Source: Nemertoderma westbladi | Taxonomy: Eukaryota; Animalia; Xenacoelomorpha | Direction: 5' to 3' | Length of the DNA: 64,000 nt | Assembly: GCA_032718475.1 (NCBI GenBank) | Contig: JAUCBJ010007175.1 | Coordinates: forward strand, 1-64,000 | Part shown: one piece after another, positions 17,801 through 62,339 of the stretch | Layout of the letters: each line of letters begins with the position of its first letter | How positions within the stretch are numbered: position 1 is the stretch's first letter | Translations under genes and position numbers: made by a program | Notes under the pieces: generated by a model | Databases searched by the model: none | Told to the model about the DNA's origin: nothing | What the model saw: only the letters and a program-made list of their open reading frames with translations

Positions 17801-20800
17801 CGATAATATAAGAATCGTATTAGTATTGACAATATTGACAATTTAGTCTTGATAATATTATAAAGTCCGTGAATCAAGTCCGATATACAAGTTGGCTGGA
17901 TAAAATACTAGTTGGCTGAAAGTTGTTATATTATTGAAGGAGATTTTTTAGCGGGAAAAGTCAGGCTTCGACTCGCGAGACTATCCATTTTAAGCCATTT
18001 GGGAGCTTCCCACACTACTGGGGACGTGAAAAATCCTTTACAGGCACAGCTCTTTAAGCTAGACACGAGTGGGGCCCTTCGTGAAGCAAAAGCTTCAAGC
18101 TATCTTAGCGAACAATTATAATTATACTATGACTTTAAAATAGGCCTGTCAAATCTTGGCTTCCGACAATTATGGCTTCCGACACAGACACACACCGCCA
18201 CACCCCAAAAACACCCCCCCCCCCCCCCTCTTTTTGAAAACGGCCATAGTAGAATTATAACAGTTCGCTTATGGCTCGCATTTTTGACTCGCCCCACCAC
18301 ACCAGGTCAAGCTGTGGTCACCCCTTTTTTAAATAGTTTTCTTTGTGAGGTTAATCCAAGGTCCGTGATCCAAGGTGGACTGACCGGTCAACAGACTGAT
18401 ACAGTAGTATATCTGAGGAACTGTCGCGAGGCACTAACTGCCAAGATTGCAGGATATATCTCAATATAGTTATTGTTTGCATATTACTGAAATAGTAGCT
18501 TGTGATTGGATATTTAATAATTTTTTTTTAAATAAATATATTTTAAATTATTTATATTTTAAATATATTTTTAAATTTATTTTATAATTATCAATTAGGA
18601 CATTAAACACAAAATCTGCATGTTGAAATTGCACAATGTTTAATTTGTGTGATATCATTTATTGATGGCCCCTTAGGATCGGGGACTGATTTTCTTCAAT
18701 CATAGAATTACATTAAAATTGAGGACAGTTTATAGCTGGTTAATAATGTACAGTATTATTAGAAGCTGAACTACTGTACCCACACCGACACTAAAAGTTG
18801 ATGTCTGCCACAACAACAGCTGTAACAGATCACCAAAGTTGCTGACAGTCAATAGAATCCAATTGGAATTGCTACTGCCAACAAGACAGCTGTAACAGAT
18901 CCATTGATACGATTTGCCCAACTTGTGGTCGTGTGTGTTTCAGCTGTAGTCGAAGGTTCTGTTGTGGTTGTAGTCGTTGTAGTTGTAACCGGATCAAACG
19001 CGGGATCGTTCCAATCAATTTCTCCATTGGCATCCAGGAAGTCGTTTTTCCAGACCCGGTCTCTTCCTATTTTGTTGCACATGTCTGTTCCATTGCAGCA
19101 AACTTGCTGACAACTTAGATGTCTCACATCCAACCTGTCTTCGTCTTCCGGCGCGTATTCCCCAGAAGCAATCCATGCTTCCTTGCAATCATCTTCATTG
19201 ATTTTTTCCACACAAGCCGTTGGTTCGCAAACCTCTGCCCTTGTATACATCAAACCTTTGGCATCTACGTTGTTGATAGTCCCTGTGGCTGTCGCTTGCA
19301 TGAAGAATATTGTTATAAGATCAATCACCACCCAGTTGCGACGAGAAACGTCAATGAGCGTATCCGGCAGGACTACAGCGGTTCTTCTACAAGAGAAAAC
19401 ATGGGACTAAACAACCGATCACGGACAATGAGCCACAACTACGAGTCATTCACAAGACATAACAATACATCCCACAACCGATTGGGCGTGACGAATCATC
19501 ATGATCACTTTAATCAGGAACATAGTTGCAGTAGTCCATGCGGGCCACATAGCCAGTCTGGTAGACGCAACAATGGTATCAACAGGCAATCAAATCAAAG
19601 TAATAATTTTATCAACACCAATCGATGCCACAAAGACAGCAGCCCAGCAGAAGGGAATCCGCAACAGTGTGATGATAGGCGGAACTTTTAGCGAAACCCA
19701 CAGTGATGTACCCCCGGCCCAGCACATACCTCTGAAAGTGACAACTTACAACTGCCGCGGGTTTCACTCAGCGAGTGATTATATTCTGTACCTAATGCAA
19801 ACAGCAGATGTCGTAGCCGTTCAGGAACACTGGCTGGACTCAATAGAAGCCAAAGAACTCCTGATGGACCTGCACCATAAGTTCAAGTGTGTTTATACTG
19901 TCTGTCACCTCATGGATAATCCACATCGAAAGCGTGGCGCCGGAGGGGTCTCACTTTGGTACAACATTGATAGATTCACATCTGTTTCCAGTATCAAATC
20001 CTCTGATGACATTGTTGGAGTGATAGCCAATATCCCCGGTCATGTTAACTCATTTCTTATTTTATCATGCTATGCACCAGATGCCTCAAAATCTACCACT
20101 CTTTATGAAGATTACCTAGGGAGATTGGACTCTATAATTAAACAACACCACGACTCCATCCCAATCATACTGTCTGATGCCAACTCGGATGTTGGTCCCT
20201 TACAGGGGCCCAGGTTCTTGAGGACAACAGCAACGATAAGGGGAGAAATGCTCAACAGCTTCTTATCGTCTAACTACTATATATGCGCCGACACAACCTC
20301 AAAGTTCACAGGCCCATGTATTACCTTCAGGGGTCGTGGCCACTCGTATATTGACCACATTATTACCAGTGAAACTGGAATGAGTTTCCTATCGAATGGC
20401 ACAGTATACGAGGAGGACCCTGTCCGTAACGACTCGGACCACGTTCCTGTAACAGCCACTTTTAGATTACCTACAAATAAACAAAGTCGAAAGTTTTGTG
20501 ACACCAACCTGATTTCCACCTTACGGTTTGCCTGGGATAAAGTAACCAGTGAGCAAACTGAGAATTACAACCAACTGGTGGATAGTGGCATTAATATTAT
20601 CCGTTCCGGCTTTCCCCATCACACGAAATGGTCCAGGGACGAGCTGGAGATGTTTACCACAGGAGTCAAAGATACTATATTCCAATCAGCGAAGGCAATC
20701 TTCCCCATCATAAAGGTACATCGAAGATCTAAGAATCTTAGAATAAGGTCGAATCAAATCAAGGAACGCTCTAAAACAACGCATCAACTCTACAACCTGT

Positions 20801-23800
20801 GGTGCGGCGAAGGGAAGGATGAAAGTAGTACCTATGGGCAGGCATTTAAGGAATCGAAACGCGCCGGGAGACGACTGAAAAATTGGTTATCAAAAAACCT
20901 AGTATCCAACGCGGTGAACAGCAGATCTAAGCTGCTAAGGAGAGATCCCAAAAAATTTTGGAATAGTTTCAAACCGAAATCCTCTCAAGAACCTCCTGCC
21001 AGCGTCCAACAGAATATCAGAAGCAACATGTCTAAGACCCATAAAGAAGATACAGATTACATTAAGTCCTTATCACAATTGATAGACGAGGTACAAGAGG
21101 CGAGCAACACTGCCGATCTCCCAACGGTCTCACCTCTGACAATAAAGAGAGCAGTATCTATCCTCTCCAAAGGAAAGGCACCGGATATAAATTCACTCGT
21201 TGTTGAACATATCATCAGCATTAACCCGGAGTTAATATGTGAAGTCCTAGCAGATATAATCAATGCATCATTTAGACTCGGTGAAGTACCTCAGCTATTT
21301 GGCGAAACAATCGTCACCCATCTGCACAAGGGCAAGGGCCGTGACCCTCTTCACCCCAAATCGTATAGACGCATTGCCACAGTCAACCTATTTGCAAAGG
21401 TGTTCGAGTCCGTGCTTCTCAGTGAGTTTCTCCCGATCCATGACATCATTCCACCATCACAGCTGGCATACCAAAAGAGGACTGGTTCTGATCTGATTAT
21501 TGGAGCCCTGCTCGAATGTCTGGAGACACAACGCCGAAAGGGAGTCTCTGTCTACATCTGCCAGTTGGACGTTGAGGCAGCCTTTGATAATGTGGAGTAC
21601 CTGACCCTCTTCAGCAAACTGCGACATCACATCAACCCTTTCATATGCCTCTCACTACTGGCATACTACAGATGCACCATAGCATTCCTTAAATTCGGTT
21701 CAACAGTCTCCACTGACGGGATACCGCTCAAACGTGGCGTGAAGCAGGGTTCGCTGCTCTCCCCGTTACTCTTTAATTTTTACACAGGCGGAACTCTAGG
21801 GGCACTGAACAGTGCCGGTTTCGGACACAGCCTTGCAGATGGATGGCTGGGTTCAATTTGTTATGCAGATGATATTCTCCTCATTGGAAAATCCGCCCAG
21901 GAAATCGAGGACCAACTAATAATAGTGACCGAGAATCTAGCTAAAGTTCAACTAACCATCGAAGAAAGCAAGACACGTTGGATGTGTATATTGGGCTATG
22001 GTCGCCATGAGCGTGACATCACAACTTTCCTCAATGTCAATGGCCGCCTGGTGCCTTGCAGCCAATCAATTAAGTTTTTGGGCTTTAAACTTCACTTCAA
22101 TCCTAGGGCTCTGTCCGACTGCATTCAAACCATTGCCTCCATTTCCGAATCTTTCCATAGAAACGACTGGACTGTGCGGTGGCTAAATACAGCGACCTTG
22201 AGTCATCTTTGGTCATCAATAGCAATCCCATGTATACTGTATAGCGTTAAATTCCTAGTTGGCTCATTGACGGACACCGAGTTGACTAAACTGGAAGTCT
22301 ACTATAGGCGAATACTCCGTGGTTTGCTACATTTGGGTAACTATGCCGGCAATCAAATTGTCTACAAACTGATGAAATGTAACCCTATCACATCCGATGC
22401 ATTTGCAGCATCGCTTGGGACAATTTTGCGAGTTCCGAGGTGTCCAAAGTCCAATCTCCACATCACCCTCAGTTTCTTAACCCAACTGAATTCCCAGACA
22501 TCTAACAGTTTATACATAGGCCCCGGGTCGACTTGCAACAACTGCAGGCGTCTCTTCCCAATACCACCTATATCACCTCTGCTCAACTACGACTACAGTA
22601 AACCGGAGTTACTGTCAAGGTTTAAACCAGGGGCATTGACACCAGGTGAGACCGCCAACTACGAATTCATCCGGCAGTGCTATGACCATAGTGGCGCAAC
22701 ATTTGACCACAAACACACACGTATACTAGAATTTTTCGACATACCGCACTGATATCATCTGACATAACTTTCCAGTGGGTTCCTGAAATATTAAAACATA
22801 CAATTACAACTGATTTGTCTAATTACAACTTCAGTGTCTTACATATGATTTTATTTCGTATATTGAAAACTTATTGATATCTTACCATATATTGTATATA
22901 TACTGTCAACATGTATTGTATATAGATATTGTGTATCGTTCGCTACCATTTTAAATTGTGTTGTGTGTGCATACTTCACTGATTGACCATTTTAAATTGT
23001 CGGCACAGACCGAATCTAATATATTGAATTGAATTGAATATGCGACATCCTGCACAATCCGTTGTAACGACACCTTGTTGATCAAGGTACCATGGAGCAT
23101 CGGCGGATATGTCTGGGCGCGATGACTTATAAGTAATCATGGTGTACTCGTCCATACAAGAAATACCTGTTACCCGTATAACCTCTTCTGTAACGATTGA
23201 AATAGCAATCAGTAGTAACACATTGACGTATTCGCTAGTCATGTTGCTTTATTGTGGACGTGCCCTATTGAATATGTTTATTAATACAATGATGATAGTG
23301 TTTATAATTTTTATAAGTAATAATAATTTATACTTTATACAATATAAATTAATATGGTTATATATACAATAATACAGGAAGAACTTCCCACGGGTGGCAC
23401 TTTAAGATCTTTGTAAACCAAACTTCAACTCCATTCCATGAAATTTGTTGTAAGTATTGCGGACTAAGCGCTGGTAATCGGTACCATGTGCGCCAGTGCA
23501 CCGAGGTATCACCACTATCACACTTAGCACGAACTTAGGGGGGGTGAGGGAGGGGGGGTGTTAGTCTCTTTTCGTTTCCATCGCTAGTAAATTTCTACCT
23601 ACAGTGTTCTCGAATGACCTGTTTCATTTCAGGTGGAACGTTGTTGACATTTTTTTTTCCTGCAGTTGATTTTTCTCCAGAAGGACATTGGGTCAGACAA
23701 TGCATGCAGTTTAGTTTTCCCTATTTTCCTAGTATACAGTTTAGTATTACTTGTAGTTTGTTCCATTCCTACTAAAGCTCTATTTTAGGTAATTCAAGCT

Positions 23801-26800: not shown

Positions 26801-29800
26801 ATGATATTGAACATGTTCTATATCACATAAAAAGTAGTTTCAGAATGGTTTTCTGGAACATTTTTATGAATACATGAAGACATGTTTGTTTATCTAACTT
26901 GTTGAAGGCCTAGAACATAAAGTAAAAAATAGCCAAAACTTCAATTGATTTTTGTATCTTTTTAAAAACAAACGTTCCAGAATATAAAATATCTTATGAT
27001 TATTTTTAAAAATATATGTCACAAAAAATATATGAAATCTAAACAATATAGATTTAAATATAAGACTTTATTTATGCGAATGTTCTAACTCTGCCTCTCC
27101 CCATACAGAAGGTGGTTGTCCCCTCGCCGTCCAGCGATGACGTCACCGTGTTGGTGGACCTGTTGCCGGGCGAACCGCTGACGTTCGTTATATCGGACCT
27201 ACCGGACGAGCGTTGGTATAAAGTGCTGATCCGGTTCGTTAACCCCAGAGGTCCGGACGAAGCCTCGTTCGCGCTGACCAACCCGGACGGGACAGCTGTC
27301 GATACACAGTGCGGGGGTCGGGAGCAGAGCTCGTTACCTAGGTTACAGGTACGTTATAGAGGCATTAAAGAATTCGTTGCCTAGGTTACAGACGTACGTC
27401 ATAGAGCCGTTACAGACCTCGTTACCTAGGTTACAGACGTACGTCATAGAAGCGTTACATGCCTCGTTACCTAGGTTACCGACGTACGTTAAAGAGGCGT
27501 TACAACCTCGTTACCTAGGTTACAGACGTACGTCATAGAGGCATTACAGACCTCGTTACCTAGGTTACAGACGTACGTCATAGAGGCATTACAGACATCG
27601 TTACCTACCCAGTGAAAAATGCGCATGCGTATCGCAAGTGATTTTAAAGCGTCATGCGTTTTTATTGCGGCTCAATAAATAGCGATAAAACTCTTGTGAT
27701 TCGCATGTGATTCACATGTAAATAGGGAAGCGATTCCACGCATGCGCTTCACAACTTATTTTACGCATGTGATTCCGTGCATGAAAATCGCATGGGAATC
27801 ACACCTCATTTAACGCTTATTTTACGCATGTTTTACACCATGAGATTCTCATGAGTTAATTCCCATGCGAATCGCATGTTTTTAATTACACTAAAGAATA
27901 TTAATTAAAATAAAGTTGCCTATCAAGAAATAAATAGTTTTAAAATATAAAATGGATGAATACGAATTATCTAATATGGCTGTCAAATACAGATATTATA
28001 TTAATATATTTTATAGAATTGAAAATTATAGGGAATAGTTAAAAGTGTATCATGGTTGTTCTAATCTATTTGTATTATCCTGTATATAACCAACCATTTC
28101 TAGTATTGATTCATACAGCATGTCTAATGTTCTAAGTCTAGAGAGTGAAATGTAATGTAATGTAAGGTAAGTACAGTAGGCAGATGATACGGAAGCCCAT
28201 AGTATCAAACAGTAGTGGAATAATCAACTACTGTAGCATATTTTCTGCCACAAAAGGTCTCAATGTATTACACAAAAATCACAACCAGTAGATTTTTGCG
28301 ATATTTATGCGTCATGACGCTTGAAAGTCGCAAGTGAATCGCATGTGAGTTTTATGCGACTGAACGCAAGTTGTTGTGATTTTTATGCGACTTAAACGCA
28401 ATTTGTTGCGATATTTATGTGACATAACTCAAGTAGATCGCTTGCGTAAAGGTCGGGCCATAACTCTTGGGAATCACATGAGATACGCCTGCGTTGCACG
28501 CTTGCGATACGCTTGCGCACTTTTCACTGGGTAGGTTACAGACGTACGTTAAAGAGGCGTTACAGACCTCGTTACCTAGGTTACAGACGTACGTCATAGA
28601 GGCATTACAGACCTCGTCACCTAGGTTACAGACGTACGTTAAAGAGGCGTTACAGACCTCGTTACCTGGGTTACAGACGTACGTTAAAGAGGCGTTACAG
28701 ACCTCGTTACCTAGGTTACAGACGTACGTCATAGAGGCATTACAGACCTCGTCACCTAGGTTACAGACGTACGTTAAAGAGGCGTTACAGACCTCGTTAC
28801 CTAGGTTACAGACGTACGTCATAGAGGCTTTACAGACCTCGTTACCTAGGTTACAGGTATGTTATAGAGGCGTTACAGACCTGGTTACCTAGGTTACAGG
28901 CACATTATAGAGGCTTTACAGACCTCGTTACCTAGGTTACAGACGTACGTCATAGAGGCATTACAGACCTCGTTACCTAGGTTACAAACGTACGTTAAAG
29001 AGGCGTTACACCCTCGTTACCTAGGTTACAGACGTACGTCATAGAGGCATTACAGACCTCGTTACCTAGGTTACAGACGTACGTCATAGAGGCATTACAG
29101 ACATCGTTACCTAGGTTACAGACGTACGTTAAAGAGGCGTTACAGACCTCGTTACCTAGGTTACAGACGTACGTCATAGAGGCATTACAGACCTCGTCAC
29201 CTAGGTTACAGACGTATGTTAAAGAGGCGTTACAGACCTCGTTACCTAGGTTACAGACGTACGTCATAGAGGCATTACAGACCTCGTCACCTAGGTTACA
29301 GACGTACGTTAAAGAGGCGTTACAGACCTCGTTACCTAGGTTACAGACGTACGTCATAGAGGCTTTACAGACCTCGTTACCTAGGTTACAGGCACATTAT
29401 AGAGGCTTTACAGACCTCGTTACCTAGGTTACAGACGTACGTCATAGAGGCATTACAGACCTCGTTACCTAGGTTACAAACGTACGTTAAAGAGGCGTTA
29501 CAGACCTCGTTACCTAGGTTACAGGTACATTATAGAGGCGTTACAGACCTCGTTACCTAGGTTACAGACGTACGTCATAGAGGCATTACAGACTTCGTTA
29601 CCTAGGTTACAGACGTACGTTATAGAGGCGTTACAGACCTCGTTACCTAGGTTACAGGTACATTATAGAGGCATTACAGACCCCGTTACCTAGGTTACAG
29701 GCATGTTATAGAGGCGTTACAGACCTCGTTACCTAGGTTACAGGTACGTTATAGAGGCGTTACAGACCTCGTTACCTAGGTTACATGTTAGTTTGTGGGG

Positions 29801-32800
29801 GGGGGAGGGGGGGGGGGGGCTCGCTCCAAACGGCTAAAGATACAAACAGTGGTGAAATATTTCTTATTTATAACATTATAATATGTATCATAATAATTAT
29901 TATATGTTATTTATTGTTGATTTGGTTATTATCTCTGGTATATTATTTACAGACAATTGAGTTCCTGGAATCTCGTGGTGCGACTGCAGTGGAAGTGGCG
30001 ACGCTGTGTCTAAAGCCTAGTCGGCGTTACGTTGCCACGGTGACCGTAACACGTAGCACTAGCGGTTACCCTAGCGACGGGGTTGGCATAGACTCGGTTG
30101 TCGCCCTACCTGTCCCCGACGACCTAACCTTCACTACTGACGATGGAATGGATCTCGTTGACGAGTTCAATGAACTTAACTGTCTGCAGTGAGTCTGTCT
30201 ATCAGTAAATTAATTTACAAATAAAATCTTTTTTTTAACCTCATAAGTCTCATTTATTTACATAGATAATAAAAACTTTACAAAATTCAGATAATATTAA
30301 ACAACGTTACTAGGCAACAAATGTAAGAGCGAAATTTAAAATGAAAAGTGCACCCACCCCCCAACACAGAAACAGTCTCTATGATGTATGGAGCATACTA
30401 CTGTACTACCCCACCCACCCAGCCGAACTGCGCCAACACCCCCGGGTCTGAATCCGCGTTAGCCAACCGGATCGATGAGTCGGTGACTACCTCCCGCACC
30501 GGTCGCCTATCATCTGAACGGTAACCGCGCAAACACATTAAGGACGACTTGAGGAGGGAGAAACTGATCTGACAACTTTACCGCCAGTCGTTTTACAAAC
30601 TGGTGGGCAGCTGGTGCCATTCCTCCGAAAGCAGAGAGGATTAAGGGAGTGAAGGTGGAGTGTTCCACCTCGCGTAATCTCTCCTCGTATTTCCGGCACT
30701 TCCTCGCCTCGTAGTGGAGATGAGCGGCGTCAATCGACATCGCCGCGTTGGTGTCCGCCAGCGGGTTGAACGCCGACACGTCGCTGAATATTTTCGGGTA
30801 GCGATTGACCAAGAATCCGCTTACCGACATGTCGAGCCGCGCCAGCTGGTCTGTCGAGGTGGAACACATATAAATCTAATAAATAATAATGAAATGTCAA
30901 ATTATCTTATTGGAATTATTAATACATTATTAAGCCATAAATTAATTAATAATTAATTTATTAAAAATAATTATTATTGAGAACAAAATAATGTGGAATG
31001 GATATAGGACGTTTCGTCCCCGGTGCGAAAAGTCCAGGGAAGAAAAGTGCGGGGACGAAATGTCCACCATCACGGACTTTTCGTCCAGAAAGTAAATAAT
31101 TACTAGCTACCATGACTCATAAATTATTCCAGACAAATATTTTAATTGAAGATTCAATTTCTTTTTTATTAATTTTTTTACTAGCTATTATAAAGTACTA
31201 GCTAACACAAAATCAAAATAACTAACTACCATCTTAATGTGAGAAGGTAGCTAAAGGGGTGAAAAGTCCGGGACGAAAATACCGGGTTAAAAGTTCCGGG
31301 ACGGAAAGTCCGCGGGACGACAAGTACGGGACGGAAAGTCCGGGAGGGAAAGTCCGGGGACGAAAAGTCCGGGGACGAAAAGTCCGGGGACGAAAAGTCC
31401 GGGGACGAAAAGTCCGGGGACGAAAAGTCCGGGGACGAAAAGTCCGGGGACGAACAGTATATTGACGAAATGTCCGTATACCATGTGGAATAACTTGTTT
31501 TTTCTGTAGGTCTGTGTGTGTCCTCTTTTTAATCCGGATTTATTCGCAATAGCAGAATATGCATTTATTCCTCGGCTACGCCTCGAAAAAATGTGCACAT
31601 TCTACTATTCCTCGAAAATTCGGATAAAAAAGTCAGACAAAAAAATAGTACTTTCTTTTTGTAAAATAAATAAATTATATTATGTTTTTTAATTTATTGA
31701 AATAGAAATATACCGTTTTCTACTATACTTTTATTATTACTTCTACAAGGTTTTGGTACAAAAACTCTGATATTGTAATTCCCGAGGAGTGTCGGGACCC
31801 GGCCAAATCCATCAGCTTACAAATACACGAGGCCGCGTTACCCTGCGAGTGCGACCCCATTGGTTCAATATCTACTGGTTGCGATACACAGAATGGTCAG
31901 TGCCGGTGTAAACGCAATGTGATTGGTCGGCGTTGCACGGCCTGTGTTAGTTACCACTACGGGTTCGGGGCAGAAGGGTGTCTTCCGTGCGACTGCAATA
32001 GAGATGGGACAGACACGGATGTCTGTACTGAAGATACAGGCCAGTGTCGGTGTAAAGATAGTAAGTTTGTACAGTAGTTTAGTAGTAGACCTTGTGTGTG
32101 TAAAGATAGTAAGTTTGTACAGTAGTTTAGTAGTAGACCTGTGTAGAGTGTGTAAAGGTGGGCAAGTGTACCGTATAGTAAAATGCTACGTGTACAGCTC
32201 GTAAAGTTAATTTAAAGTAAAGATTTTTATCTCAGTTAAAACGGCAGTGTGCAGATATTAAGAGTGGAATAAAATTTATTAATAATTATTTTTAACGTCT
32301 CGTAGATATCGTTGGTCGTACATGCGACACTTGCGGCCGGATGCGGCATCGCTTCCCCACGTGCGTGGCCTGCGACTGCGGGAGATACGGCCGACTCGTG
32401 CGACCCGGTCTCCGGTAGTTGCATCGGTTGCTCCGAGAACACCGCCGGGAAACAGTGCGGCGACTGCGCCACGGGTTACTACCGGGGGGTTGCTGCTATG
32501 GGAACCGAGACCCGTTGTCTGGCATGCACGTGTCCCGGCCGACCCGGGTCTGGGAGGTATTTCGCCGATTCCTGTCAGATGGTCTCTTTCGCCGGACAAA
32601 ACAAGGTAACGAATCTGTTGCATTCCTATCGTATTAGTGTTTTTGTAATGCATTTATTATTCGATAGTCTTCAATATTAATATAGATACTATTTTAGATT
32701 AAATGGAGTTGGCATTTGTTATGGCTGTATTGTTAATTAATTGGAACTTTGATAAAAAAACTTTTATGAAAATGTTTGGCTGATAAAAACAACAGCACTC

Positions 32801-35800
32801 CAGAGTTTGTACTTTTCGCACCAAGTTTTTACCTCACATTTTGGCGTGCAGCATTAACATTAACATTTTTCTCTTTTGTTATTTAATTTAATTCCTTTTA
32901 CGGATTTAATCATTGGACGTTGGGGTGTCACTTGTGGTTTATAAAAAGTGGGGCGAGCCAAAGTATTAGTTTTTGCTTTTTATATTTCTAAAGTGTCCCA
33001 GATGTCGAATTTTCTTATATTTTAGTGGTTTATATTTTTGTGATTTCATTTTTCATTTTTAGTAGAAAATCAACTGCATTCAGTTCCAGATCTATAAATT
33101 AGTTGGAGTGGAATATTTCGTTTAAATTATATTCAATTAAATATTGTTTCGGGGCTCTCAATATTTGAGCACCAAAAATGGCTTCTCGTTCGAGGCCCCA
33201 CCCCCCCCCCCCCCCCCCCCCCCCTTCGAGAACGAGGGGGGAGGGGCGGGATACTCCATTCTGTATATGATTAATGAATTTAATTATCTAATTAATTTTA
33301 ATTTATTAATTTATACAGGAGTTGCGATGCTCATGTAGTCCCGGTTACCAAGGAAACGAATGCGACCAATGCGTTCCCGGTTACTATGGCAATCCCCCCG
33401 CTTGGTATCAGCTGTTCCAAATGTTTCTGCAACGATAATACCGGGGAATTCCGGATGCGACGCCTCTAGCGGCGCGTGTAGGAACTGCAGAGGGAATACG
33501 GAGGGGAGAGAATGTGAGCGTTGTGTACCGGGGTTCTGGGGGGAAGCGACACAGGGCGATTGTAAGCCGTGCGGATGCAGTTAACTAGGATCGTACAGTA
33601 AACCGTGCGGATGCAGTAAACTAGGATCGTAAGTAAACCGTGCGGATGCAGTAAACTAGGATCGTAAGTAAACCGTGCGGATGCAGTAAACTAGGATCGT
33701 AAGTAAACCGTGCGGATGCAGTAAACTAGGATCGTAAGTAAACCGTGCGGATGCAGTAAACTAGGATCGTAAGTAAACCGTGCGGATGCAGTAAACTAGG
33801 ATCGTAAGTAAACCGTGCGGATGCAGTAAACTAGGATCGTAAGTAAACCGTGCGGATGCAGTAAACTAGGATCGTAAGTAAACCGTGCGGATGCAGTAAA
33901 CTAGGATCGTAAGTAAACCGTGCGGATGCAGTAAACTAGGATCGTAAGTAAACCGTGCGGATGCAGTAAACTAGGATCGTAAGTAAACCGTGCGGATGCA
34001 GTAAACTAGGATCGTAAGTAAACCGTGCGGATGCAGTAAACTAGGATCGTAAGTAAACCGTGCGGATGCAGTAAACTAGGATCGTAAGTAAACCGTGCGG
34101 ATGCAGTAAACTAGGATCGTAAGTAAACCGTGCGGATGCAGTAAACTAGGATCGTAAGTAAACCGTGCGGATGCAGTAAACTAGGATCGTAAGTAAACCG
34201 GTGTCGTTGGTGAATGAACGGGGTTCGAACCAGCGCTATACGTACGTTTGGCCTATCAGGCCTCATCAGTAGCGTTAACCAGTTCAGTCACTTGCCCCTG
34301 ACACTTACTCTCCCATCTAATACACTTCTTTTGGACATTTAGTTTAAAGATGCATACTAATGCCGCTACTAATGAGGCCTACCAGGCCGAAAAATGCGTA
34401 TAGCGCTGGTTCAACCCCCGGTGACATGTTTTCTCATGTTTGACCATTTCTGAATAAAAATATATTAAGACTATAATTCATTAAATAGTTTTGCATTATC
34501 AGCTGGTTGATCTCCAATTCATGCAATCGTAAGTAAACTGTGTAGTTAAGTTGTGTTCATGTAATAAAATGTTCCACCTTGGTGTTGTGGTTGCATTGAA
34601 TTAACATCTCTCGTAGGTCGTGGGTTCGATCCCCAAATGAGCCAGGGTAGTTTTCGTTTCGGCACGATGGTAGCTAAATGAGTACTGGGGATTCCTGTTT
34701 GGGAATTAGAAGTCCCAAAAATGTTTATTTTGAAGTGTATTTGTTTTAACATTAATTATTACAATTACAATAAATGATTTAACTCTAGTTACTTATTTCG
34801 CCTTGTGCGTTATGAAAAATGAGCAAGCCAGGGCCTTGGAAGAAATTAAACAGCAACTAGTTTTAAACCAGGACATGTTAAGTGCCTCTAATAGGCAATT
34901 ACCACCCAAGGCCACGAAACCAGGCTTCCAAATAATCCAGAGAGCTTCTGACATGGCAGGTATTCATGCAGAAGATTATAGGTGGAACCAGATTAACGAT
35001 AGTGACATTTTCAGTCGGACTGACTCCAGGCCTCAACAACCTCCCATACAAGTGAACCAACCTTACACGGATGACCCACCCAAATTTACCTTTCATACAC
35101 CACAAATAACTCCTGACTATTCCAAACTAAATATGTCAGCACAAGAGAGTTTTACACACCAGATGGCACGTACAGAAGCGCGTCAAGCAGTGTCCACTGG
35201 AGAAACTCTTAAGTTCTATGGCGATGAACTAAAATGGCTGCCATTTAATGAATAATTATAAAGACACTATTCAAAATTCAGTGCTTTCTGATGGTGAGAA
35301 GTTAAGGTTTTTGATCGACTGTTTGGAAGGAGCTCCCAGAGATATGGCTATGAAATATATTGGTCACCCTGGAGGATTACAGCAATGTTTGAGTAATTTA
35401 TGTGAACGTTATGGTAACAAAACTAAAATAGCTAGATATATCTATCAAAAGTTAGTTGCCCGAAAGCGTATCACAGCCGCTGGATTGATTGAATTCGCTG
35501 ACGAAATTCAAGAGATGTGCCGGCAATTAGACTGGTTAAGTAGAACTGATGTTTATGATACAACCATGCTCGTAAATATGATAGCAAAACAACCTACCCA
35601 AGGGCAATGTAGGAAACAGGTGGGATAAACATGTCCTCCATCTGGAACGTAGCCAAAATAGAGAACCAAAAATGCAAGACTTTACAAAATTCCTGAAGGA
35701 AGAAGTAAAACTGCAATTGCAAAGGGAACGCAATGAACCAAAGGTCAGTGAAAGGTTTGTGACCAGAAAGCGAGGAACTGTGTACCACGTGACAGTGAAA

Positions 35801-38800
35801 GCTATACATCGCCAGGTGAGGATACGGGTAGGGATAGTGCGAGTGAAGTATATTATACTAAACCGACTGGTAAACTGAGAACTGGGCCAAGTACACCACC
35901 TAGATCCAGACAAGTTAGTTGCAAATCTAGTGCCCCTAGTAGAGACAAGCATTCCGGACCCGACACTTACCCCTTGAAGGTGCCAAATGTACAATCCAAT
36001 ACAGCTGTCTGTCTACACGAAATTGCTCTTTATGTAAGGAGACGCACCGACTATCACGTTGCCCAGAATTTTTCAAGAAAACTCTTAAGGAAAGAAGGGC
36101 TACTGTAAGCTCACTTGGACTCTGTTTCGTTTGTTTACAATCCAGACATTTGAGAAACAAATGTCGGTTCGAAACAAAATGTCCCAAATGTAGTGAAAGA
36201 CATCATGCTCTGTCTGTTACATATAGATCAGCCTAAGGTAAGGGACCCGGAATATCATGTTCAATTTAGCGACTGCTATGACTCGAACACCTCATCTGAT
36301 GCGGCGGAATTTTTCCCCGGATAATTTTCTGATGAAGATGAAATGTGTAATATGTGTCATTCAGCCATATACAAGGCACTACAATATGAAACTCCATCAG
36401 ACACTAATGATGATGAACTAAACGACCCAGCTCATGCGCAGGTGAGTAAGCGCATTCACCGACCCAAATATGTTATCCGTGAATTTCCTGTGGTCCAACT
36501 TCGTTTGCACACACCCCACTCCAGTGTCATTATAAATGCGCTCATGGACACAAGAGGTACCGGAAGCCAACATCTTGTTTAGAGACAAAGACAAATTCCC
36601 CATGAAACTGTAACTATCAGGAATTGTGCAAGTATGGAAGTCGACAGTTAGTACTAACTATTGCAAGGGAGCTCTATCGACACCATGGTAAGGACTGCTT
36701 GAGAAACATCAAAACTTGAAACACTCGAGAAACGGCCACCACATCCTCCGCCTATGACGACTTATGCCGGCAGGACAAGGATCGGCTGGTTTTGTACTGG
36801 ACCATCAGCTAAGACTTTGGCTGAACGAGAGAGCCGATCTAAAAGCCTTCAATGTAACATGACCAACAGGAGATATGTCATTTCTGTCTCATTTCTCGTT
36901 CAGGAAATGTGGAGTGAGAACAACTCCTGGGATCTGGAGAAACATGATCTGGGGAGTATAATTCTGGGGGGGGGGGGGGGGGGGGGGGGCACTGGAAATA
37001 TGTATTCAGTCTTTGTGCATAATTCCTGGCGAAACGGCTGAAGAAAATTTACTTTACTAATATTTAACCACATTTACAGACAATGCGACGGCGACGGTAA
37101 CTGTGGTGTTTGCGATATCCGTTCCGGCGTTTGTGATTGTTTACCTAATGTCGAAGGCAAACTGTGTAAAAGGTTAGTCTCTGTAAAGATAAATCAACAC
37201 AAACCGTTATACGGTTATGGCTAAATGTTTATAGCCATCCTGCGTTAGTTTATTTACACTAAACATTTATTGTACTCAATCTCAACCCAAGATTCAGATA
37301 CCCAATCCTACCTCCCCTCCCTCCATTACTTTTATTTATATTCAGTTCTCATATAGCCCTACCTTGACAGTAACACACTGAATAGCAATATCTTATATTT
37401 TAAACCAACCCCACCACCCACCACTATAGTGCTGTTTAACTTATTTTGTAGTGACAAATTAACTAAACCCAATAAAATAAATATAAATGACACTAATTTT
37501 TTCAACTAATTAAATAATAGTTGGAATTCAACTAAAAGTTAACTAAATACCAACATTTTGAATAATTCACGTAAACATACCGACAGTTCTTATTGACTCG
37601 TAAAGGACAACACCACCCATTCTATATTGGGTATGGTCTTTCATATGGTTATCACTATGTTAGCCTACTCTACCTTGTAACTTAGCTCAACTGGATCGAG
37701 GGATCCGGGAGAAAAAATACAGTTCATTTAGTTTTAAATCACTTCGCTTGTAACTTAACTGTGTAATAAATAAATTATTAATTAACTTTAAGTAGATTCT
37801 TTCAACGCATATAATATATATTTTATTATTTTTGAACATATATAAAGTAATTTCAGACAATGTTTACTACAATATTTTATCTACTACTTGCTCTATTATC
37901 CGTACCGGTATCTCAATGTAACTCATTATTTGCTTCGTATAGATGCCAACCTGGGTACTGGGGTCTGGGATCCCAGGCTGACTCACCAGGCTGTCAGCCT
38001 TGTGATTGCAGTCCCCAGGGATCACTGACACCGGACTGTAACCAATTAGAAGGTCACTGTGACTGCAGACCCGGTTTCGGTGGTCGAACATGTACAGAAT
38101 GTGCTAATGGACAGTGGGGTAAGTTAATGTTGTAATGGACAATGGGGTAAGTTAGTGTGGTAATGGACAATGGGGTAAGTTAATGTTGTAATGGACAATG
38201 GGGTAAGTTAATGGACAATAGGGTAAGTTAATGGACAATGGGGTAAGTTAATGGACAATGGGGTAAGTTAATGTTGTAATGGACAATGGGGTAAGTTAAT
38301 GGACAATGGGGTAAGTTAATGTTGTAATGGACAATGGGGTAAGTTAATGGACAATAGGGTAAGTTAATGGACAATGGGGTAAGTTAATGTTGTAATGGAC
38401 AATGGGGTAAGTTAATGGACAATGGGGTAAGTTAATGTTGTAATGGACAATGGGGTAAGTTAATGGACAATAGGGTAAGTTAATGGACAATGGGGTAAGT
38501 TAATGTTGTAATGGACAATGGGGTAAGTTAATGGACAATGGGGTAAGTTAATGGACAATGGGGTAAGTTAATGGACAATGGGGTAAGTTAATGGACAATG
38601 GGGTAAGTTAATGTTGTAATGGACAATGGGGTAAGTTAATGGACAATAGGGTAAGTTAATGGACAATGGGGTAAGTTAATGTTGTAATGGACAATGGGGT
38701 AAGTTAATGGACAATGGGGTAAGTTAATGGACAATGGGGTAAGTTAATGGACAATGGGGTAAGTTAATGGACAATGGGGTAAGTTAATGGACAATAGGGT

Positions 38801-41800
38801 AAGTTAATGGACAATGGGGTAAGTTAATGTTGTAATGGACAATGGGGTAAGTTAATGGACAATAGGGTAAGTTAATGGACAATGGGGTAAGTTAATGTTG
38901 TAATGGACAATGGGGTAAGTTAATGTTGTAATGCACAATGGGGTAAGTTAATGTTGCAATGCACAATGGGTTAAGTTAATGGACAATAGGGTAAGTTAAT
39001 GGACAATGGGGTAAGTTAATGTTGTAATGGACAATGGGGTAAGTTAATGTTGTAATGCACAATGGGGTAAGTTAATGTGGTAATGCACAATGGGGAAAGT
39101 TAGTGTGGTAATGGACCATAGGGTAAGTTAATGTGGTAATGGGGTAAGTTAATGGACAATGGGGTAAGTTAATGGACAATGGGGTAAGTAAATGGACAAT
39201 GGGGTAAGTTAATGGACAATGGGGTAAGTTAATGGACAATGGGGTAAGTTAATGTAGTAATTGGGTATGCTAATGGTCAATGGGGTAAGTTAATGTGGTA
39301 ATTGGGTAAGCTAATGGACAATGGGGTAAGTTAATGTTGTAATGCACAATGGGGTAAGTTAATGTGGTAATGGGTTAAGTTTATGTTGTAATGCACAATG
39401 GGGTAAGTTAATGTTGTAATGCACAATGTTGTAAATTTATGTTGTAATGGACAATGGGGTAAGTTAATGTGGTAATGAGGTAAGTTAATGTTGTAATGGA
39501 CAATAATGGTGTAAGTTAATATGGTAATGGATAATGGGGTAAGTTAGTGTGGTAATGGACAATGGGGTAAGTTAATGTGGTAATGGACAATGGGTTAAGT
39601 TACTGTGGTAATGGGTTAAGTTTATGTGGTAATGGACAATGAGATAAGTTAATGTGGTAATGAGGTAAGTTAATGTTGTAATGGACAATAATGGTGTAAG
39701 TTAATATGGTAATGGATAATGGGGTAAGTTAGTGTGGTAATGGACAATGGGGTAAGTTAGTGTGGTAATGGACAATGGTGTAAGTTACTGTGGTAATGGA
39801 CAATGAGGTAAGTTAATGTGGTAATGAGGTAAGTTAATGTTGTAATGGACAATAATGGTGTAAGTTAATATGGTAATGGATAATGGGGTAAGTTAGTGTG
39901 GTAATGGGTTAAGTTTATGTTGTAATGCACAATGGGGTAAGTTAATGTTGTAATGCACAATGTTGTAAATTTATGTTGTAATGGACAATGGGGTAAGTTA
40001 ATGTGGTAATGAGGTAAGTTAATGTTGTAATGGACAATAATGGTGTAAGTTAATATGGTAATGGATAATGGGGTAAGTTAGTGTGGTAATGGACAATGGG
40101 GTAAGTTAATGTGGTAATGGACAATGGGTTAAGTTAATGTTGTAATGCACAATGGGGTAAGTTAATGTTGCAATGCACAATGGGTTAAGTTAATGGACAA
40201 TAGGGTAAGTTAATGGACAATGGGGTAAGTTAATGTTGTAATGGACAATGGGGTAAGTTAATGTTGTAATGCACAATGGGGTAAGTTAATGTGGTAATGC
40301 ACAATGGGGAAAGTTAGTGTGGTAATGGACCATAGGGTAAGTTAATGTGGTAATGGGGTAAGTTAATGGACAATGGGGTAAGTTAATGGACAATGGGGTA
40401 AGTAAATGGACAATGGGGTAAGTTAATGGACAATGGGGTAAGTTAATGGACAATGGGGTAAGTTAATGTAGTAATTGGGTATGCTAATGGTCAATGGGGT
40501 AAGTTAATGTGGTAATTGGGTAAGCTAATGGACAATGGGGTAAGTTAATGTTGTAATGCACAATGGGGTAAGTTAATGTGGTAATGGGTTAAGTTTATGT
40601 TGTAATGCACAATGGGGTAAGTTAATGTTGTAATGCACAATGTTGTAAATTTATGTTGTAATGGACAATGGGGTAAGTTAATGTGGTAATGAGGTAAGTT
40701 AATGTTGTAATGGACAATAATGGTGTAAGTTAATATGGTAATGGATAATGGGGTAAGTTAGTGTGGTAATGGACAATGGGGTAAGTTAATGTGGTAATGG
40801 ACAATGGGTTAAGTTACTGTGGTAATGGGTTAAGTTTATGTGGTAATGGACAATGAGATAAGTTAATGTGGTAATGAGGTAAGTTAATGTTGTAATGGAC
40901 AATAATGGTGTAAGTTAATATGGTAATGGATAATGGGGTAAGTTAGTGTGGTAATGGACAATGGGGTAAGTTAGTGTGGTAATGGACAATGGTGTAAGTT
41001 ACTGTGGTAATGGACAATGAGGTAAGTTAATGTGGTAATGAGGTAAGTTAATGTTGTAATGGACAATAATGGTGTAAGTTAATATGGTAATGGATAATGG
41101 GGTAAGTTAGTGTGGTAATGGACAATGGGGTAAGTTAATGTGGTAATGAGGTAAGTTAATGTTGTAATGGACAATAATGGTGTAAGTTAATATGGTAATG
41201 GATAATGGGGTAAGTTAGTGTGGTAATGGACAATGGGGTAAGTTAATGTGGTAATGGACAATGTGGTAAGTTACTGTGGTAATGGACAATGAGGTAAGTT
41301 AATGTGGTAATGAGGTAAGTTAATGTTGTAATGGACAATAATGGTGTAAGTTAATATGGTAATGGATAATGGGGTAAGTTAGTGTGGTAATGGACAATGG
41401 GGTAAGTTAATGTGGTAATGAGGTAAGTTAATGTTGTAATGAACAATAATGGTGTAAGTTAATATGGTAATGGATAATGGGGTAAGTTAGTGTGGTAATG
41501 GACAATGGTGTAAGTTAATATGGTAATGGATAATGGGGTAAGTTAGTGTGGTAATGGACAATGAGGTAAGTTAATGTGGTAATGAGGTAAGTTAATGTGG
41601 TAATGAGGTAAGTTAATGTTGTAATGGACAATAATGGTGTAAGTTAATATGGTAATGGATAATGGGGTAAGTTAGTGTGGTAATGGACAATGGGGTAAGT
41701 TAATGTGGTAATGGACAATGGGTTAAGTTACTGTGGTAATGGACAATGGGGTAAGTTAGTGTGGTAATGATGTAAGTTAATGTTGTATTGGACAATGCGT

Positions 41801-44800
41801 TAAGTTACTGTGGTAATGGACAATGGTGTAAGTTAATATGGTAATGGATAATGGGGTAAGTTAGTGTGGTAATGGACAATGAGGTAAGTTAATGTGGTAA
41901 TGAGGTAAGTTAATGTGGTAATGAGGTAAGTTAATGTTGTAATGGACAATAATGGTGTAAGTTAATATGGTAATGGATAATGGGGTAAGTTAGTGTGGTA
42001 ATGGACAATGGTGTAAGTTAATATGGTAATGGATAATGGGGTAAGTTAGTGTGGTAATGGACAATGGGGTAAGTTAATGTGGTAATGGACAATGGGGTAA
42101 GTTAGTGTGGTAATGGACACTGGGTTAAGTTACTGTGGTAATGGACAATGGGGTAAGTTAGTGTGGTAATGATGTAAGTTAATGTTGTATTGGACAATGC
42201 GTTAAGTTACTGTGGTAATGGACAATGGGGTAAGTTAATGTGGTAATGGACAATGGGGTAAGTTAATGTGGTAATGATGTAAGTTAATGTTGTAATGGAC
42301 AATAATGATGTAAGTTAATATGGTAATGGATAATGGGGTAAGTTAGTGTGGTAATGGACAATGGGATAAGTTAATGTGGTAATGGACAATGGGGTAAGTT
42401 ACTGTGGTAATGGACAATGAGGTAAGTTAATGTGGTAATGGACAATGGGGTAAGTTAATGTGGTAATGATGTAAGTTAATGTTGTAATGGACAATGGGTT
42501 AAGTTACTGTGGTAATGGACAATGAGGTAAGTTAATGTGGTAATGGACAATGGGGTAAGTTACTGTGGTAATGGACAATGGGGTAAGTTAGTGTGGTAAT
42601 GATGTAAGTTAATGTTGTAATGGACAATGGGTTAAGATACTGTGGTAATGGACAATGGGGTAAGTTAATGTGGTAATGATGTAAGTTAATGTTGTAATGG
42701 ACAATGGGTTAAGTTAATATGGTAATGGATAATGGGGTAAGTTAGTCTGGTAATGGACACTGGGTTAAGTTACTGTGGTAAGGGACAATGGGGTAAGTTA
42801 GTGTGGTAATGATGTAATTTAATGTTGTAATGGACAATGGGTTAAGTTACTGTGGTAATGGACAATGGGGTAAGTTAATGTGGTAATGGACAATGGGGTA
42901 AGTTAATGTGGTAATGATGTAAGTTAATGTTGTAATGGACAATGGGTTAAGTTAATATGGTAATGGATAATGGGGTAAGTTAGTGTGGTAATGGACAATG
43001 GGGTAAGTTAGTGTGGTAATGGACAATGGAGTAAGTTAGTGTGGTAATGGACACTGGGTTAAGTTACTGTGGTAATGGACAATGGGGTAAGTTAGAGTGG
43101 TAATGGACACTGGGTTAAGTTACTGTGGTAATGGATAATGGGGTAAGTTAGTGTGGTAATGGACAATGGGGTAAGTTAGTGAGGTGATGGACAATGGGGT
43201 AAGTTAGTGTGGTAATGGACACTGGGTTAAGTTACTTTGGTAATGGATAATGGGGTAAGTTAGTGTGGTAATGGACAATGAGGTAAGTTAGTGAGGTGAT
43301 GGACAATGGGGTAAGTTAGTGTGGTAATGGACAATGGGGTAAGTTAGTGAGGTAATGGACACTGGGTTAAGTTACTTTGGTAATGGATAATGGGGTAAGT
43401 TAGTGTGGTAATGGACAATGAGGTAAGTTAGTGAGGTGATGGACACTGGGTTAAGTTACTGTGGTAATGGACAATGGGGTATCTCCGTGTGGTAAAGGAC
43501 AATGGGGTATCTCCGTGTGGTGATGGACAATGGGGTATGTTATTGTGGTAATAGATATATACATGTTGGGTGTGCTGTTAATTCTGTTAATTCTTTTTGT
43601 TTTAATAACTTTGTTTTTAAATATTAGGTGATCCATCAGTTGGGTGTAAACCTTGTGGATGCGACCCATCTGGGTCTCAGAAACAGCAATGCGACCGAAG
43701 TACTGGTGTCTGTCAATGTAAACCCGGCATACAGGGCCGCTACTGCGAGCAGTGTGAGAGAGGGAGTGTGGAATTCCCGATCTGCCGTAACTGCGGACAA
43801 TGTTTCACTAACTGGGACGATAAGTAAGTTTATAGCAATGGATTCTTGTTCGTTATAATAATTATAAACTAGATAAACAAAAAAAAAATCATAAAGGAAA
43901 TTTGTAATCCTTCCAGACAATCTTGTCTAAATGTGTATTTCTATTGATAATAATGAGTGATTTAAGTTTGTAGTTTACTAACCAAATACAGTATATTTAA
44001 TCTACCTATATATTTAATAAGTAATGGTACTTTCATAGGTAATAAAGGTACACTTATATTTACTTATAATTATCAATTAATATTTTTACTCTAAATTTAA
44101 AGTTTCGGGGTGCGGGTTTCGGGTGGATGCGAGGTGTGTGGGATCTAGGGACCACCTCATAAAGTTCCTTGCTGTTCGCGAGTGAGGGATCCACCCACAG
44201 TTCCCATGATGGAGGCCGCATCCGACCAGAATGGCAACAGCTTACAAGAATTGAGTCTGAACCTCCTTGTTGAGTTCCTGGTACTTTCGGATCTTTATAG
44301 TTCCGCTTCCTCGGCAGTGCGCCCTCAAGCGGATACAATTATTTATTTAATTCATATAATTCAAATGTCGAAAGTTGAAAATTATAACGTAATTACATCA
44401 ACAAATTATTTATAATTTTATTCGCAGGATAGAAGACCTGGTTAACGCCACTCGGGCAACTATAGAACGCTCCAAAAACTTTACGGGTTCCAGCCATGCT
44501 GGAGCCTATGACCGAGAACTAGCGGAGTTGGAGGCATTGGTTGATAATATTACCAGTCATATTAGCGATCCTTTCTACAGCACCGACGATGTTATGAAGA
44601 TCGCCAATGAACTGGAAGATCTGAAAACTCGATATGGCAAAAAATTGGTTAGAAGGAGTTTTCTTTTTTCTTTATTGAAGAAAATAATAATGTTTTATAT
44701 ATTTAATTGATTGGTATTTATATGGTATTAATAATTATGATACAACTAAATAGTGAAACCAACTTATTATTGTTACCTATTACAGGATGACCTAGAGGTG

Positions 44801-47800
44801 AATGCTTACAGTATAGAATCCTTGGACGAGGACATGGCTGATAGTACAGATGCGTTGGACATACTGAGAGACAGAATCGAGGATTTAGGGATCCTAAGTG
44901 ACTTGATGCTGGCTAATGCCACTGAGTTGTCAGCCTCTGACGCAGAAGGAGCCATTAGAGTGTTAGAAGAAGCTATGGATGTCGTCCAACAAGCTGTAAG
45001 AAAGGTTAGTCTGGTACAATTTTCATGTTGGTTGATTGTAAACTGAAACAATTTGAATGTTGATAATTTCCAAAGTGCCGCCCATGTGAGGAATACCAGG
45101 ATTTCACTTTTCGGTCGACTTTTTATTGGAATTTTATATAGGAAGATTTTTTATTTTTTTTTAATTTATCTTTATTAAGTGTTTTATAGCGCTTTATTTC
45201 TGTCTTATAACCTGTACATATACTAATTCGTTTATTGTTTTGGTTAGATTCAGCCCTTCTGTAACATGTGTTTTTGGTGAAAACCTATGGTTTTCTTCAC
45301 ATGGGGGTAACTGCAAAGTGAAATATAACGGCAGAAAGTCTGGTATTCTTCACATGGGGGTAACTGCAAAGTGAAATATAACGGCAGAAAGTCTGGTATT
45401 CTTCACATGGGCCCCAAAGTGAAACAATTTTAATGTTGATTGATTCTAAACTGAAACCATTTTCCTGTAGGTTGATTCATTGGACGAGATAGTGGAGAAT
45501 GCGACGAGAATTCGAACCGACGTGGAAGACATTTTGTTGAAGTCTGAGCGACTGCGTCTGGAGCCGCGATTCAACGAGACTGTAGACCGAGTAGCGGAGG
45601 GTCTGGCGGACGTGGAGGACCTACTGCGTGGTCTCAACCGGGACGTCTGTGGCTCCGGCTCGCCCTACTGCAACCCAGCGTGCGGCGGGGCTGGTTGTCC
45701 CGTACAGTGTGGCGGAGAAGACTTCCTGAACAAGTCCCGTTGCGCAGGTATCACTTACCGAATTGTAAAAATCTCACCCCAAAGGAAAACTCCCAAAAAT
45801 CAGTTTCAACTCTCTAAGATTAATCGAATAACATAGCCAAACGTTTGCTCAATTAGTTTGTTAAGGTTCGATACATAAGTATCGGTAATTTTTTTAATGT
45901 GAGTGTTGTTAAACACGTAAAATCAGTAGTACTTACTTAATTATAATATAATAATGAAATTCCGGTATTATAATACACCATCTCACTTAAAACAACAATT
46001 TTTAGCAAGTCGGAGAACCCCCACCCCCCCCCCCCCCCGAATTGTTTTTAAATTTCAATCATATTTTACGAAATTTGATTTGATGATAGTTCGACACCTT
46101 TTCTTACTGTTGGCCTTGCCGGATTTTAATTTATGAGCTATTTCGATACAACAAGACGTTACAAATCGTCTTTTTCGCAATATTTAGCCACTATGTCTTC
46201 TTTATTTTTCGTCTTTGGAATGAAATCTATATTAGAACCGCTTTCATCTGCAGATTCAGAATCAGAAAACCGTTTTAAATTTCACCAATAACTTCCGGAG
46301 ATATTATCAAAATTCAAAAGTATACATTTTGACACATAATTCGCTATAATTCTAATGTTTTATTTACTCAATTCTAGAATATTAATTACGTGTAATGAAG
46401 AAATAACATGGCAAAGAAACAACAGAGCACCTAATTAATGCATCATCAAATACTATGTGTAAATATATTGCTTTCCTTTTCAACAGCATGACCCATTGTG
46501 GAGTCTTTCCGGACAACCTATGTGAGAGTCTCTTACTACCTCACCTCAAGAATGCTACTCGAAAGAAAAACGATACAACAAATTACAGAGGAATTTCAAT
46601 CTCATCAATCTTCGTCAAGCTGTGGGAAATTCTAGTTCTGAGCGAATTCACTCGAGAGGCAACTTGCCATCTCCAAATGGCATACAAGAAAGGAATCAAT
46701 GGAGAAATCCCCTACATGGTAGCCAATAAACTAATTAAGCGTTTTAATGCAGGTGGCTCAGACGTCCACGTGCTCTCAATAGACTTATCTGCGGCCTTCG
46801 ACTGCGTAAACCACAAATCTCTCTTTAGTAAGCTTAGGGAAACAAATATCGATAAACCCTGGTTACAACTACTCGAATCACTCTACAAAAAATCTACAGC
46901 TTATGTAAGAACAGGACGACGTTTATACACACAATCAATCAAACTATCCAAAGGCGTAAGAGAAGGGGGAGTATTATCTGCCTGGCTCTTTAATTTTTAT
47001 CTAAAAGAATTATTCGTCAACATAGAATCATTAGGATTAGGTATACACATCAACAAGCACTCCTACCCTATAATTGGGTATGCAGATGACATACTGCTTC
47101 TAGCAAACCTAAAGAGCGATCTACAGAAGTTAACAACAGTTTGTACTACCTACTTCTCTGCACATGGCCTAAAAGCGAACCCAACAAAATCCCATTATGT
47201 TATCTGCTCACCAACAACAAAGACAACCACTAAACAAACCCTGAAAGTTGGTCACACTACCCTAGAACACGAAAATAGTTGTCGATACCTAGGACTGCCC
47301 TTCCCCTTAAACTCAAGACAGCCTAAAAGACAACTTCGTCAAAAGGTGCTGGTGGAATGTGGCGCGACTAAAGAACCGGGGGTTATCAACTTCTGATGTG
47401 CCCCTGATAGTTACGAAGACCATATGGAAAACCATTTGCACCCCATCAATCCTATATGGAACAGCAAATTACACAGATGCTATCACCAACGATTTTGAAG
47501 TCTTTTTTCGAAAGGCTATGAGATCAATATTAGATGTCAAAAATTACGTATCCAACAATACCCTGTACCTTCTCCTAGGACAAGAAACCCTATCATCCCT
47601 AGTGGCATACAACAAATGTAGGATCATATACAGTGCTTTCAACTCTCGCAATCCAAAAATAATATACTTCTTCGCCTGGCTTCTAGCGCAGCATAGCCTT
47701 AATATATATAAAGACCCTCTATTTGACGACTACAACGTTGCGTCGTGGATTTACGAACTACCATGCATAACCAGCCTAGTAACGGCATCCTACAGCACCA

Positions 47801-61922: not shown

Positions 61923-62339
61923 AACTTATATTTATCTTAGTTTATGTTTCGCTAACATTCAGTAGGTTAATGTAAGTGTGGTTTACAATGTTGCTGTCAC
62001 ATGCAAATGTTCAAGTTTCAAGGTTAAATTCAGTTGTAACTTAAGCCTAATTTTTTTATCTCTACCCTATTATTAATTTTTAACACTGTAACTCAGCATT
62101 GAGTTACACCTAAGCGATTGGATCCATCGCAAGCCATAGTGATTATTCAAAAACCCCTCGACGTAATTCGACAACTAAACGGACAGTTTACTCCCTAAAA
62201 ATAGATTAATACTGCCAAAAATATGGCAGTATGTCTAACTTATTCATTAGGTTTGTGGCTTTTAAACCCCAATTTACGATAATATTTGATAAAAGGTAAT
62301 TATTATTATTGAAAATATAAGGGTTATATTTTTGAGTTT

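Follow-up and report, generated by a model that had tools for sequence, protein, structure and literature searches.

We analyzed a window of 64,000 nucleotides from the xenacoelomorph Nemertoderma westbladi (GenBank assembly GCA_032718475.1, contig JAUCBJ010007175.1, positions 1 to 64,000 of the forward strand), in which a laminin beta-like gene carries an intron filled with tandem copies of the exon–intron junction at which it begins. This array is a minisatellite whose unit comprises the end of the preceding exon together with its 5' splice site (donor), amplified about 210-fold; the first donor likely remains the one in use, and the array most likely persists as a tolerated by-product without function. 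Repeats of this class have already been described, and the present one is a large example of the invertebrate type. All coordinates below refer to positions in this window and to the plus strand unless stated otherwise.

Structure of the array and its host gene

A query with an upstream exon returned laminin chains, nearly all of the beta type, with 34–52% identity (22 matches among 25 candidates). When four laminin beta homologues were aligned in order with tblastn, the alignments broke at ~38120 and restarted at ~43627 without any gap in the protein, so that intron limits of 38119–43627, as proposed in an earlier note on this DNA, fit the homology. The species' own laminin protein was also sought in protein searches and not found, the best identity being 52% among these 22 of 25 candidates, while further searches for it yielded one of nine candidates (a laminin gamma), none of 339, and two unrelated repeat proteins. 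Overall, 21 exons could be located in the window, and the first match falls near residue 200 in a homologue of 1,770 residues, which places the start of the gene upstream. The exon preceding the array (37943–38118), delimited by tblastn with homologues and by its AG/GT limits, encodes laminin EGF-like repeats; its designation as exon 14, which we retain, counts from the first exon in the window and not from the start of the gene. Exon 15 (43628–43823) encodes the final EGF-like repeat and the start of the coiled coil.

Minisatellite sequence makes up 98.6% of this 5,509-nt intron. Tandem Repeats Finder delimited an array at 38098–43552 with a period of ~28 and 209 copies, and a unit-by-unit parse resolved 213 head-to-tail units of 57 types and of minisatellite size, i.e., 20–31 nt (125 units of 28 nt, 41 of 20 nt, 33 of 21 nt, 13 of 31 nt, and one cut terminal unit), close to the roughly 200 units that had been estimated from length. 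The first unit lies across the genuine exon–intron boundary, as defined by the homologues and the open frame, and contains both an exon and an intron part: the 28-nt unit joins the 21 terminal letters of exon 14 (the template, 38098–38118) to the seven initial letters of the intron (GTAAGTT), and its exon-derived part differs from the end of exon 14 at 3–4 of 21 positions. The splice signal is accordingly reiterated inside the intron, with 172 occurrences of GTAAGT, 122 of them preceded by GG and 23 by AG. This corresponds to 145 of the 213 units and agrees with the statement that most units carry one of these two motifs, while GT at +1/+2 is kept by 183 of the 213. The density of GTAAGT reaches 31.7 per kb in the intron, against 0.35 per kb on the plus strand of the rest of the window (a background from which the 35-bp sister array described below was excluded). 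However, the description of the intron as almost entirely made of splice sites was too strong, since only 28% of its sequence consists of donor 9-mers, and the exon supplies 21 letters of the 28-nt unit.

The proximal block (units 1–30, 38119–38798) includes only four unit types and displays an intact G/GTAAGT in 30 of 30 units, compared to 14–22 types and 17–24 such donors in the later 30-unit blocks. The array is therefore homogeneous beside the exon and more varied distally, as had been noticed; yet the units do not diverge steadily with distance, as mismatches to the exon sequence range from 3.0 to 4.3 of 21 across all blocks without a steady distal increase. A block duplicated within the array, previously put at about 1.2 kb, is real but measures 1,035 bp (38873–39907 and 40087–41121), 1,214 being the offset between the two copies; two mismatches lie near its 5' edge, and the remaining 992 bp are identical. 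Taken with several further internal duplications of 150–280 bp, the homogeneous proximal block indicates concerted turnover within the array. The intron then ends in 75 nt of non-repeat sequence (43553–43627) with a T-rich tract and a TAG acceptor.

Splice signals within the array

The authentic 5' splice site (GGG/GTAAGT, 38119–38124, phase 1) is the sole donor that keeps the reading frame open. Reading past it adds GKLML and then meets the in-frame TAA of the first unit (38133–38135), exactly as the earlier note had read it, and none of the 182 downstream GT donors gives a stop-free product, as every one takes in this TAA. GTAAGT is the optimal match to U1 at positions +1 to +6, as had been claimed, but positions −3 to −1 are GGG and not CAG, and for this reason a simple U1-pairing count gives the first donor 7.5 out of 11, on par with the other donors of the gene. 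By that count, the first donor is equalled by 119 copies and surpassed by 25, beginning with the one at 39184; the spliceosome would indeed face many equally strong donors. No unit has CAG at −3 to −1. Masking of these copies by RNA structure was considered and rejected for the first 300 nt, for which folding was no better than for shuffled sequences (z = −0.52; 55 of 200 shuffles folded equally well), so that structure does not hide the copies. On the acceptor side, the true site has the best pyrimidine tract among all AGs of the intron (9 of 14), while the 21 acceptors of the gene are preceded by 6–13 pyrimidines of 14, mostly 8–11. The lack of a good acceptor within the array argues against both recursive splicing and pseudo-exons.

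We found no clear pattern of selection for or against donor letters across the units, nor any sign of their preservation. Variation is among the highest in the unit at −1 (8 of 36 sequence contexts, 30 of 212 copies) and at +1 (9 of 36 contexts, 28 of 212 copies), and +2 is hardly variable (1 of 36 contexts). Variable −1 and +1 positions next to a stable +2 fit a mutable G-run, seen as varied GGGG, rather than selection.

Expression of the gene

The 3' flank of the array occurs in four sets of public contigs, which come from three studies. In run X4, which belongs to a separate study and whose type was guessed as "DNA?", depth is confined to exon 12, with none in the flanking introns, and the loose ends of the contigs at exon 12 are the preceding exon and the following exon. 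X4 thus behaves as RNA, and we read it as an RNA run with spliced contigs and the gene as expressed. In one X4 contig of 2,498 nt, exon 13 directly follows 33592, i.e., the first donor of the 35-bp sister array; this contig, in which the focal junction is expected at nt 346, continues downstream unbroken. Such assembled contigs drop rare forms and under-represent targets of nonsense-mediated decay (NMD), and are thus silent on the size of any leak to later donors. The other runs, X1–X3, do not cover exon 12 itself, and a gap there proves nothing; they do contain, at high depth, the 35-bp unit of the sister array (two studies, X1 being possibly the source of this DNA).

Comparison with known junction-spanning repeats

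Junction-spanning minisatellites are reported in human F7, CBS, 6-16, lamin B2, and PDGF (PMC1557585). In the 37-bp variable number tandem repeat (VNTR) of F7 intron 7, as here, the first unit lies over the boundary and is followed by identical pseudo-donors. In minigenes with 1–12 F7 units, splicing was reported to use solely the functional donor lying furthest upstream, even where later sites matched U1 better, perfect CAG/GTGAGT being the only donors that competed (PMC1557585). The 25-bp VNTR of ABCA7 intron 18 similarly begins at the donor of the exon, with each unit starting with a donor GT, and use of its second unit leads to a premature stop (PMC5954066, De Roeck et al. 2018). These arrays differ from the present one in several respects. 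The exon contributes four letters to the F7 unit, against 21 here, and the ABCA7 unit, which is C-rich and starts at the GT, is described without an exon part; the donor core is GTGGGT in F7 and GTAAGT here (PMC1557585, PMC5954066). Unit numbers are 5–9 in F7 and 10–25 in 6-16, CBS, lamin B2, and PDGF, compared to 213 here, but since the ABCA7 VNTR spans 12 to ~427 units and up to 10.7 kb, the size of the present array is no record. For ABCA7, length polymorphism and effects on splicing have been measured (PMC5954066), whereas the array described here is known from the sequence of one assembly.

Outside of vertebrates, the lancelet "mirage" minisatellites, reported in Adh3, the globins BflGb6 and BflGb9, troponin C, and PGBD5, share with this array the tandem duplication of exon–intron boundaries, a presence at multiple loci per genome, and concerted turnover, with units of 10–160 bp (PMC3087553, PMC3902484). 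They are described as leaving splicing undisturbed, and their authors considered mirages as possibly general (PMC3087553). The copy numbers given for them are small (3–6 in BflGb6) next to 213. In the present case, a single gene has repeats at four of its donors, and none of 21 acceptors passes the same test (see below). Tandem repeats at exon boundaries and their relation to splicing in humans are treated more widely in PMC2812944 and PMC10078293.

A proposed origin and competing explanations

We propose that the array was born through a short tandem duplication over the junction. Its growth may reflect slippage combined with unequal exchange, the newest and most homogeneous units being those that adjoin the exon. 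The exon-nearest donor would be the first to emerge in nascent RNA and would pair with the upstream acceptor, leaving the other donors nearly silent, as suggested by F7 and by the sister array. A slip to a later donor would, from the sequence, bring in the stop five codons on, and the resulting products, with many junctions downstream, would probably be degraded by NMD, the cost being a small loss of output with the protein unaltered. Among the outcomes envisaged in the earlier note, first-come selection is documented for this arrangement in F7 (PMC1557585) and is what the sister array shows, and a small NMD-bound leak is plausible given ABCA7 (PMC5954066), while heavy NMD and a U1 sink find no support.

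Several observations weigh against this account. Human 6-16 and CBS also splice from their second and third donors, as summarised in PMC1557585, and ABCA7 shows retention of one unit (PMC5954066), so that a small NMD-bound leak is likely to accompany use of the first donor. The exons ending at the first six donors would be 176–300 nt long, all of which are plausible sizes. The loose end of X4 is known over 30 letters and stops short of the focal junction, so that the RNA evidence for first-donor use there is indirect. The F7 data come from mammalian cells and from arrays of no more than 12 units, and this animal, with 200 units, may differ. Finally, all 30 proximal units keep an intact donor, for which a neutral model must invoke recent expansion.

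Some of these points would also suit a leakier arrangement, in which a good part of splicing goes to donors 2–6 and the level of laminin beta is set, through NMD, by how long the array is or how good its proximal units are, or in which the G-rich units affect how exon 15 is spliced, similar to the effect of the ABCA7 VNTR on its downstream exon. We regard this as rather unlikely. The proximal donors are identical from −3 to +8 and lie only 20–28 nt apart, all downstream donors carry the stop, the array includes 116 GGGG runs, and ABCA7 combines one-unit retention with skipping of the following exon that depends on array length (PMC5954066). However, donor choice in F7 was unaffected by unit number (PMC1557585), one-unit retention in ABCA7 was reported as independent of length (PMC5954066), and the X4 contig is unbroken, although NMD targets would be under-represented there. 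It is less probable still that the array, though real, is inflated in length by assembly, e.g., through a false duplication of the 1-kb block. The length of the focal array is that of this single assembly, the 992 letter-identical bp of the block would be compatible with such an error, and the homopolymer-type insertions in exons 11 and 12, two of which are absent from another run, point to an imperfect consensus nearby. Against this, the 57 unit types form ordered and nested patterns that an assembler would not invent, ~170 units remain without the duplicated block, and the sister array unit reaches high depth in the runs of two studies noted above.

A dead gene copy, for which decoy donors would be irrelevant, appears very unlikely. 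In the region 32306–33592, one letter is inserted in exon 11 and two in exon 12, which also contains an in-frame TAA at 33582; moreover, at least one exon demanded by phase and by ~94 homologue residues between 45747 and 59442 was searched for there and not found, and the sequenced individual could carry a null allele. On the other hand, X4 lacks both exon 12 insertions (33394 and 33443), and as X4 behaves as RNA, the lesions in the window would be assembly errors or an allele. Its contig has one other differing letter within 33516–33592, at an unlisted position, which is likely the stop at 33582, and exons 13–18 spliced at their first donors form 393 stop-free codons. The earlier reservation that the gene might be unexpressed or a pseudogene, i.e., devoid of an intact spliced transcript, is thus not upheld by these spliced contigs, which come from another study. 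Stepwise removal of the intron by recursive splicing can be practically dismissed: 23 AG/GTAAGT motifs do exist, but a recursive site would present YAG/GT behind a polypyrimidine tract, and 23 of 23 are GAG with 5–6 pyrimidines of 14, compared to 6–13 at the acceptors of the gene. Introns of 5.5 kb also do not need such a ratchet. Retention of the array as a sink for bulk binding of U1 small nuclear ribonucleoprotein, or as a telescripting device, seems highly improbable as well. It would be in keeping with 172 GTAAGT sites in unstructured RNA and with the ability of U1 bound at cryptic intronic sites to block premature polyadenylation (PMC10870369), but the intron contains no AATAAA or ATTAAA to suppress, and donor letters are not preferentially kept. 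With roughly a million copies of U1 in each mammalian cell (PMC10870369), a level from which this animal's may differ, we estimate that tens of nascent transcripts, each with ~180 sites, would engage less than 1% of it.

Sister arrays and donors as possible repeat seeds

The same gene carries further repeats at its donors. Exon 12 is followed by an array of 18 copies of a 35-bp unit (33562–34200), exon 8 by ~31 copies of a 45-bp unit, most of them with an altered donor (27325–29785), and a two-copy 48-bp duplication spans the donor of exon 10 (32050–32144). The exon 12 donor is weak-looking (GTACAG), and a stray copy of the 35-bp unit lies at ~34520–34540. The exon 8 array is interrupted by a ~925-bp element resembling a miniature inverted-repeat transposable element (27608–28531), which is bounded by terminal inverted repeats and has TA as its target site.

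Next, we compared donors to other intronic positions. Downstream copies of their own junction were detected for 4 of the 21 located donors (27348, 32060, 33592, and 38118, i.e., exons 8, 10, 12, and 14), against 92 of 5,379 control positions (1.7%) once 2,123 positions inside arrays had been set aside (binomial P = 0.0004; P = 0.005 with the focal array excluded), and for none of the 21 acceptors in the same test. These values come from one gene chosen post hoc, with sampled positions that are non-independent and at least one exon uncounted, and exon-derived letters may by themselves ease the formation or detection of repeats. The acceptor of exon 18 displays a degenerate two-copy 32-bp duplication (45416–45478), scoring 29 against a cut-off of 30. 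That donors are hot spots of minisatellite birth in this genome is thus possible, but on balance doubtful. The combined proposal, that donors are mutational hot spots (4/21 against 1.7%, with acceptors at 0/21) and that the 200-donor array acts as a length-dependent NMD dial, is improbable. A genome-wide test of donors as repeat seeds was not found in the literature, in a partial search that included few subscription papers and no supplements.

Other features of the window

Tandem arrays occupy ~29% of the window. Most of its first intron is filled by a 20-bp satellite of 325 copies (3150–9746 and 10374–10513), which carries 185 branch-point-like TACTAAT motifs and was not matched to an exon junction. 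At the other end, each of the 55 units of a 30-bp array (62339–64000) contains a T-rich run followed by CAG/G, resembling a 3' splice site, and may represent an acceptor-side array of an exon past the end of the window. By eye, an open frame of 1,086 codons in the intron after exon 6 (19492–22749) is endonuclease-reverse transcriptase-like, and the intron after exon 12 includes broken, gag-like retroelement remnants (34700–36900). The minus strand of the intron after exon 6 has a Cys-rich frame of 185 codons (19406–18852), which includes a Thr-rich stalk and a hydrophobic tail and is possibly an exon of a nested gene.

Implications

The array would allow first-come donor choice to be tested in nature with 200 copies, compared to 12 units in the F7 minigenes. 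If donors were found to be enriched as repeat seeds genome-wide, splicing signals would be tied to the sites at which minisatellites are born, and such repeats would supply sequence from which introns could be gained through tandem duplication, as has been proposed for the lancelet mirages (PMC3087553).

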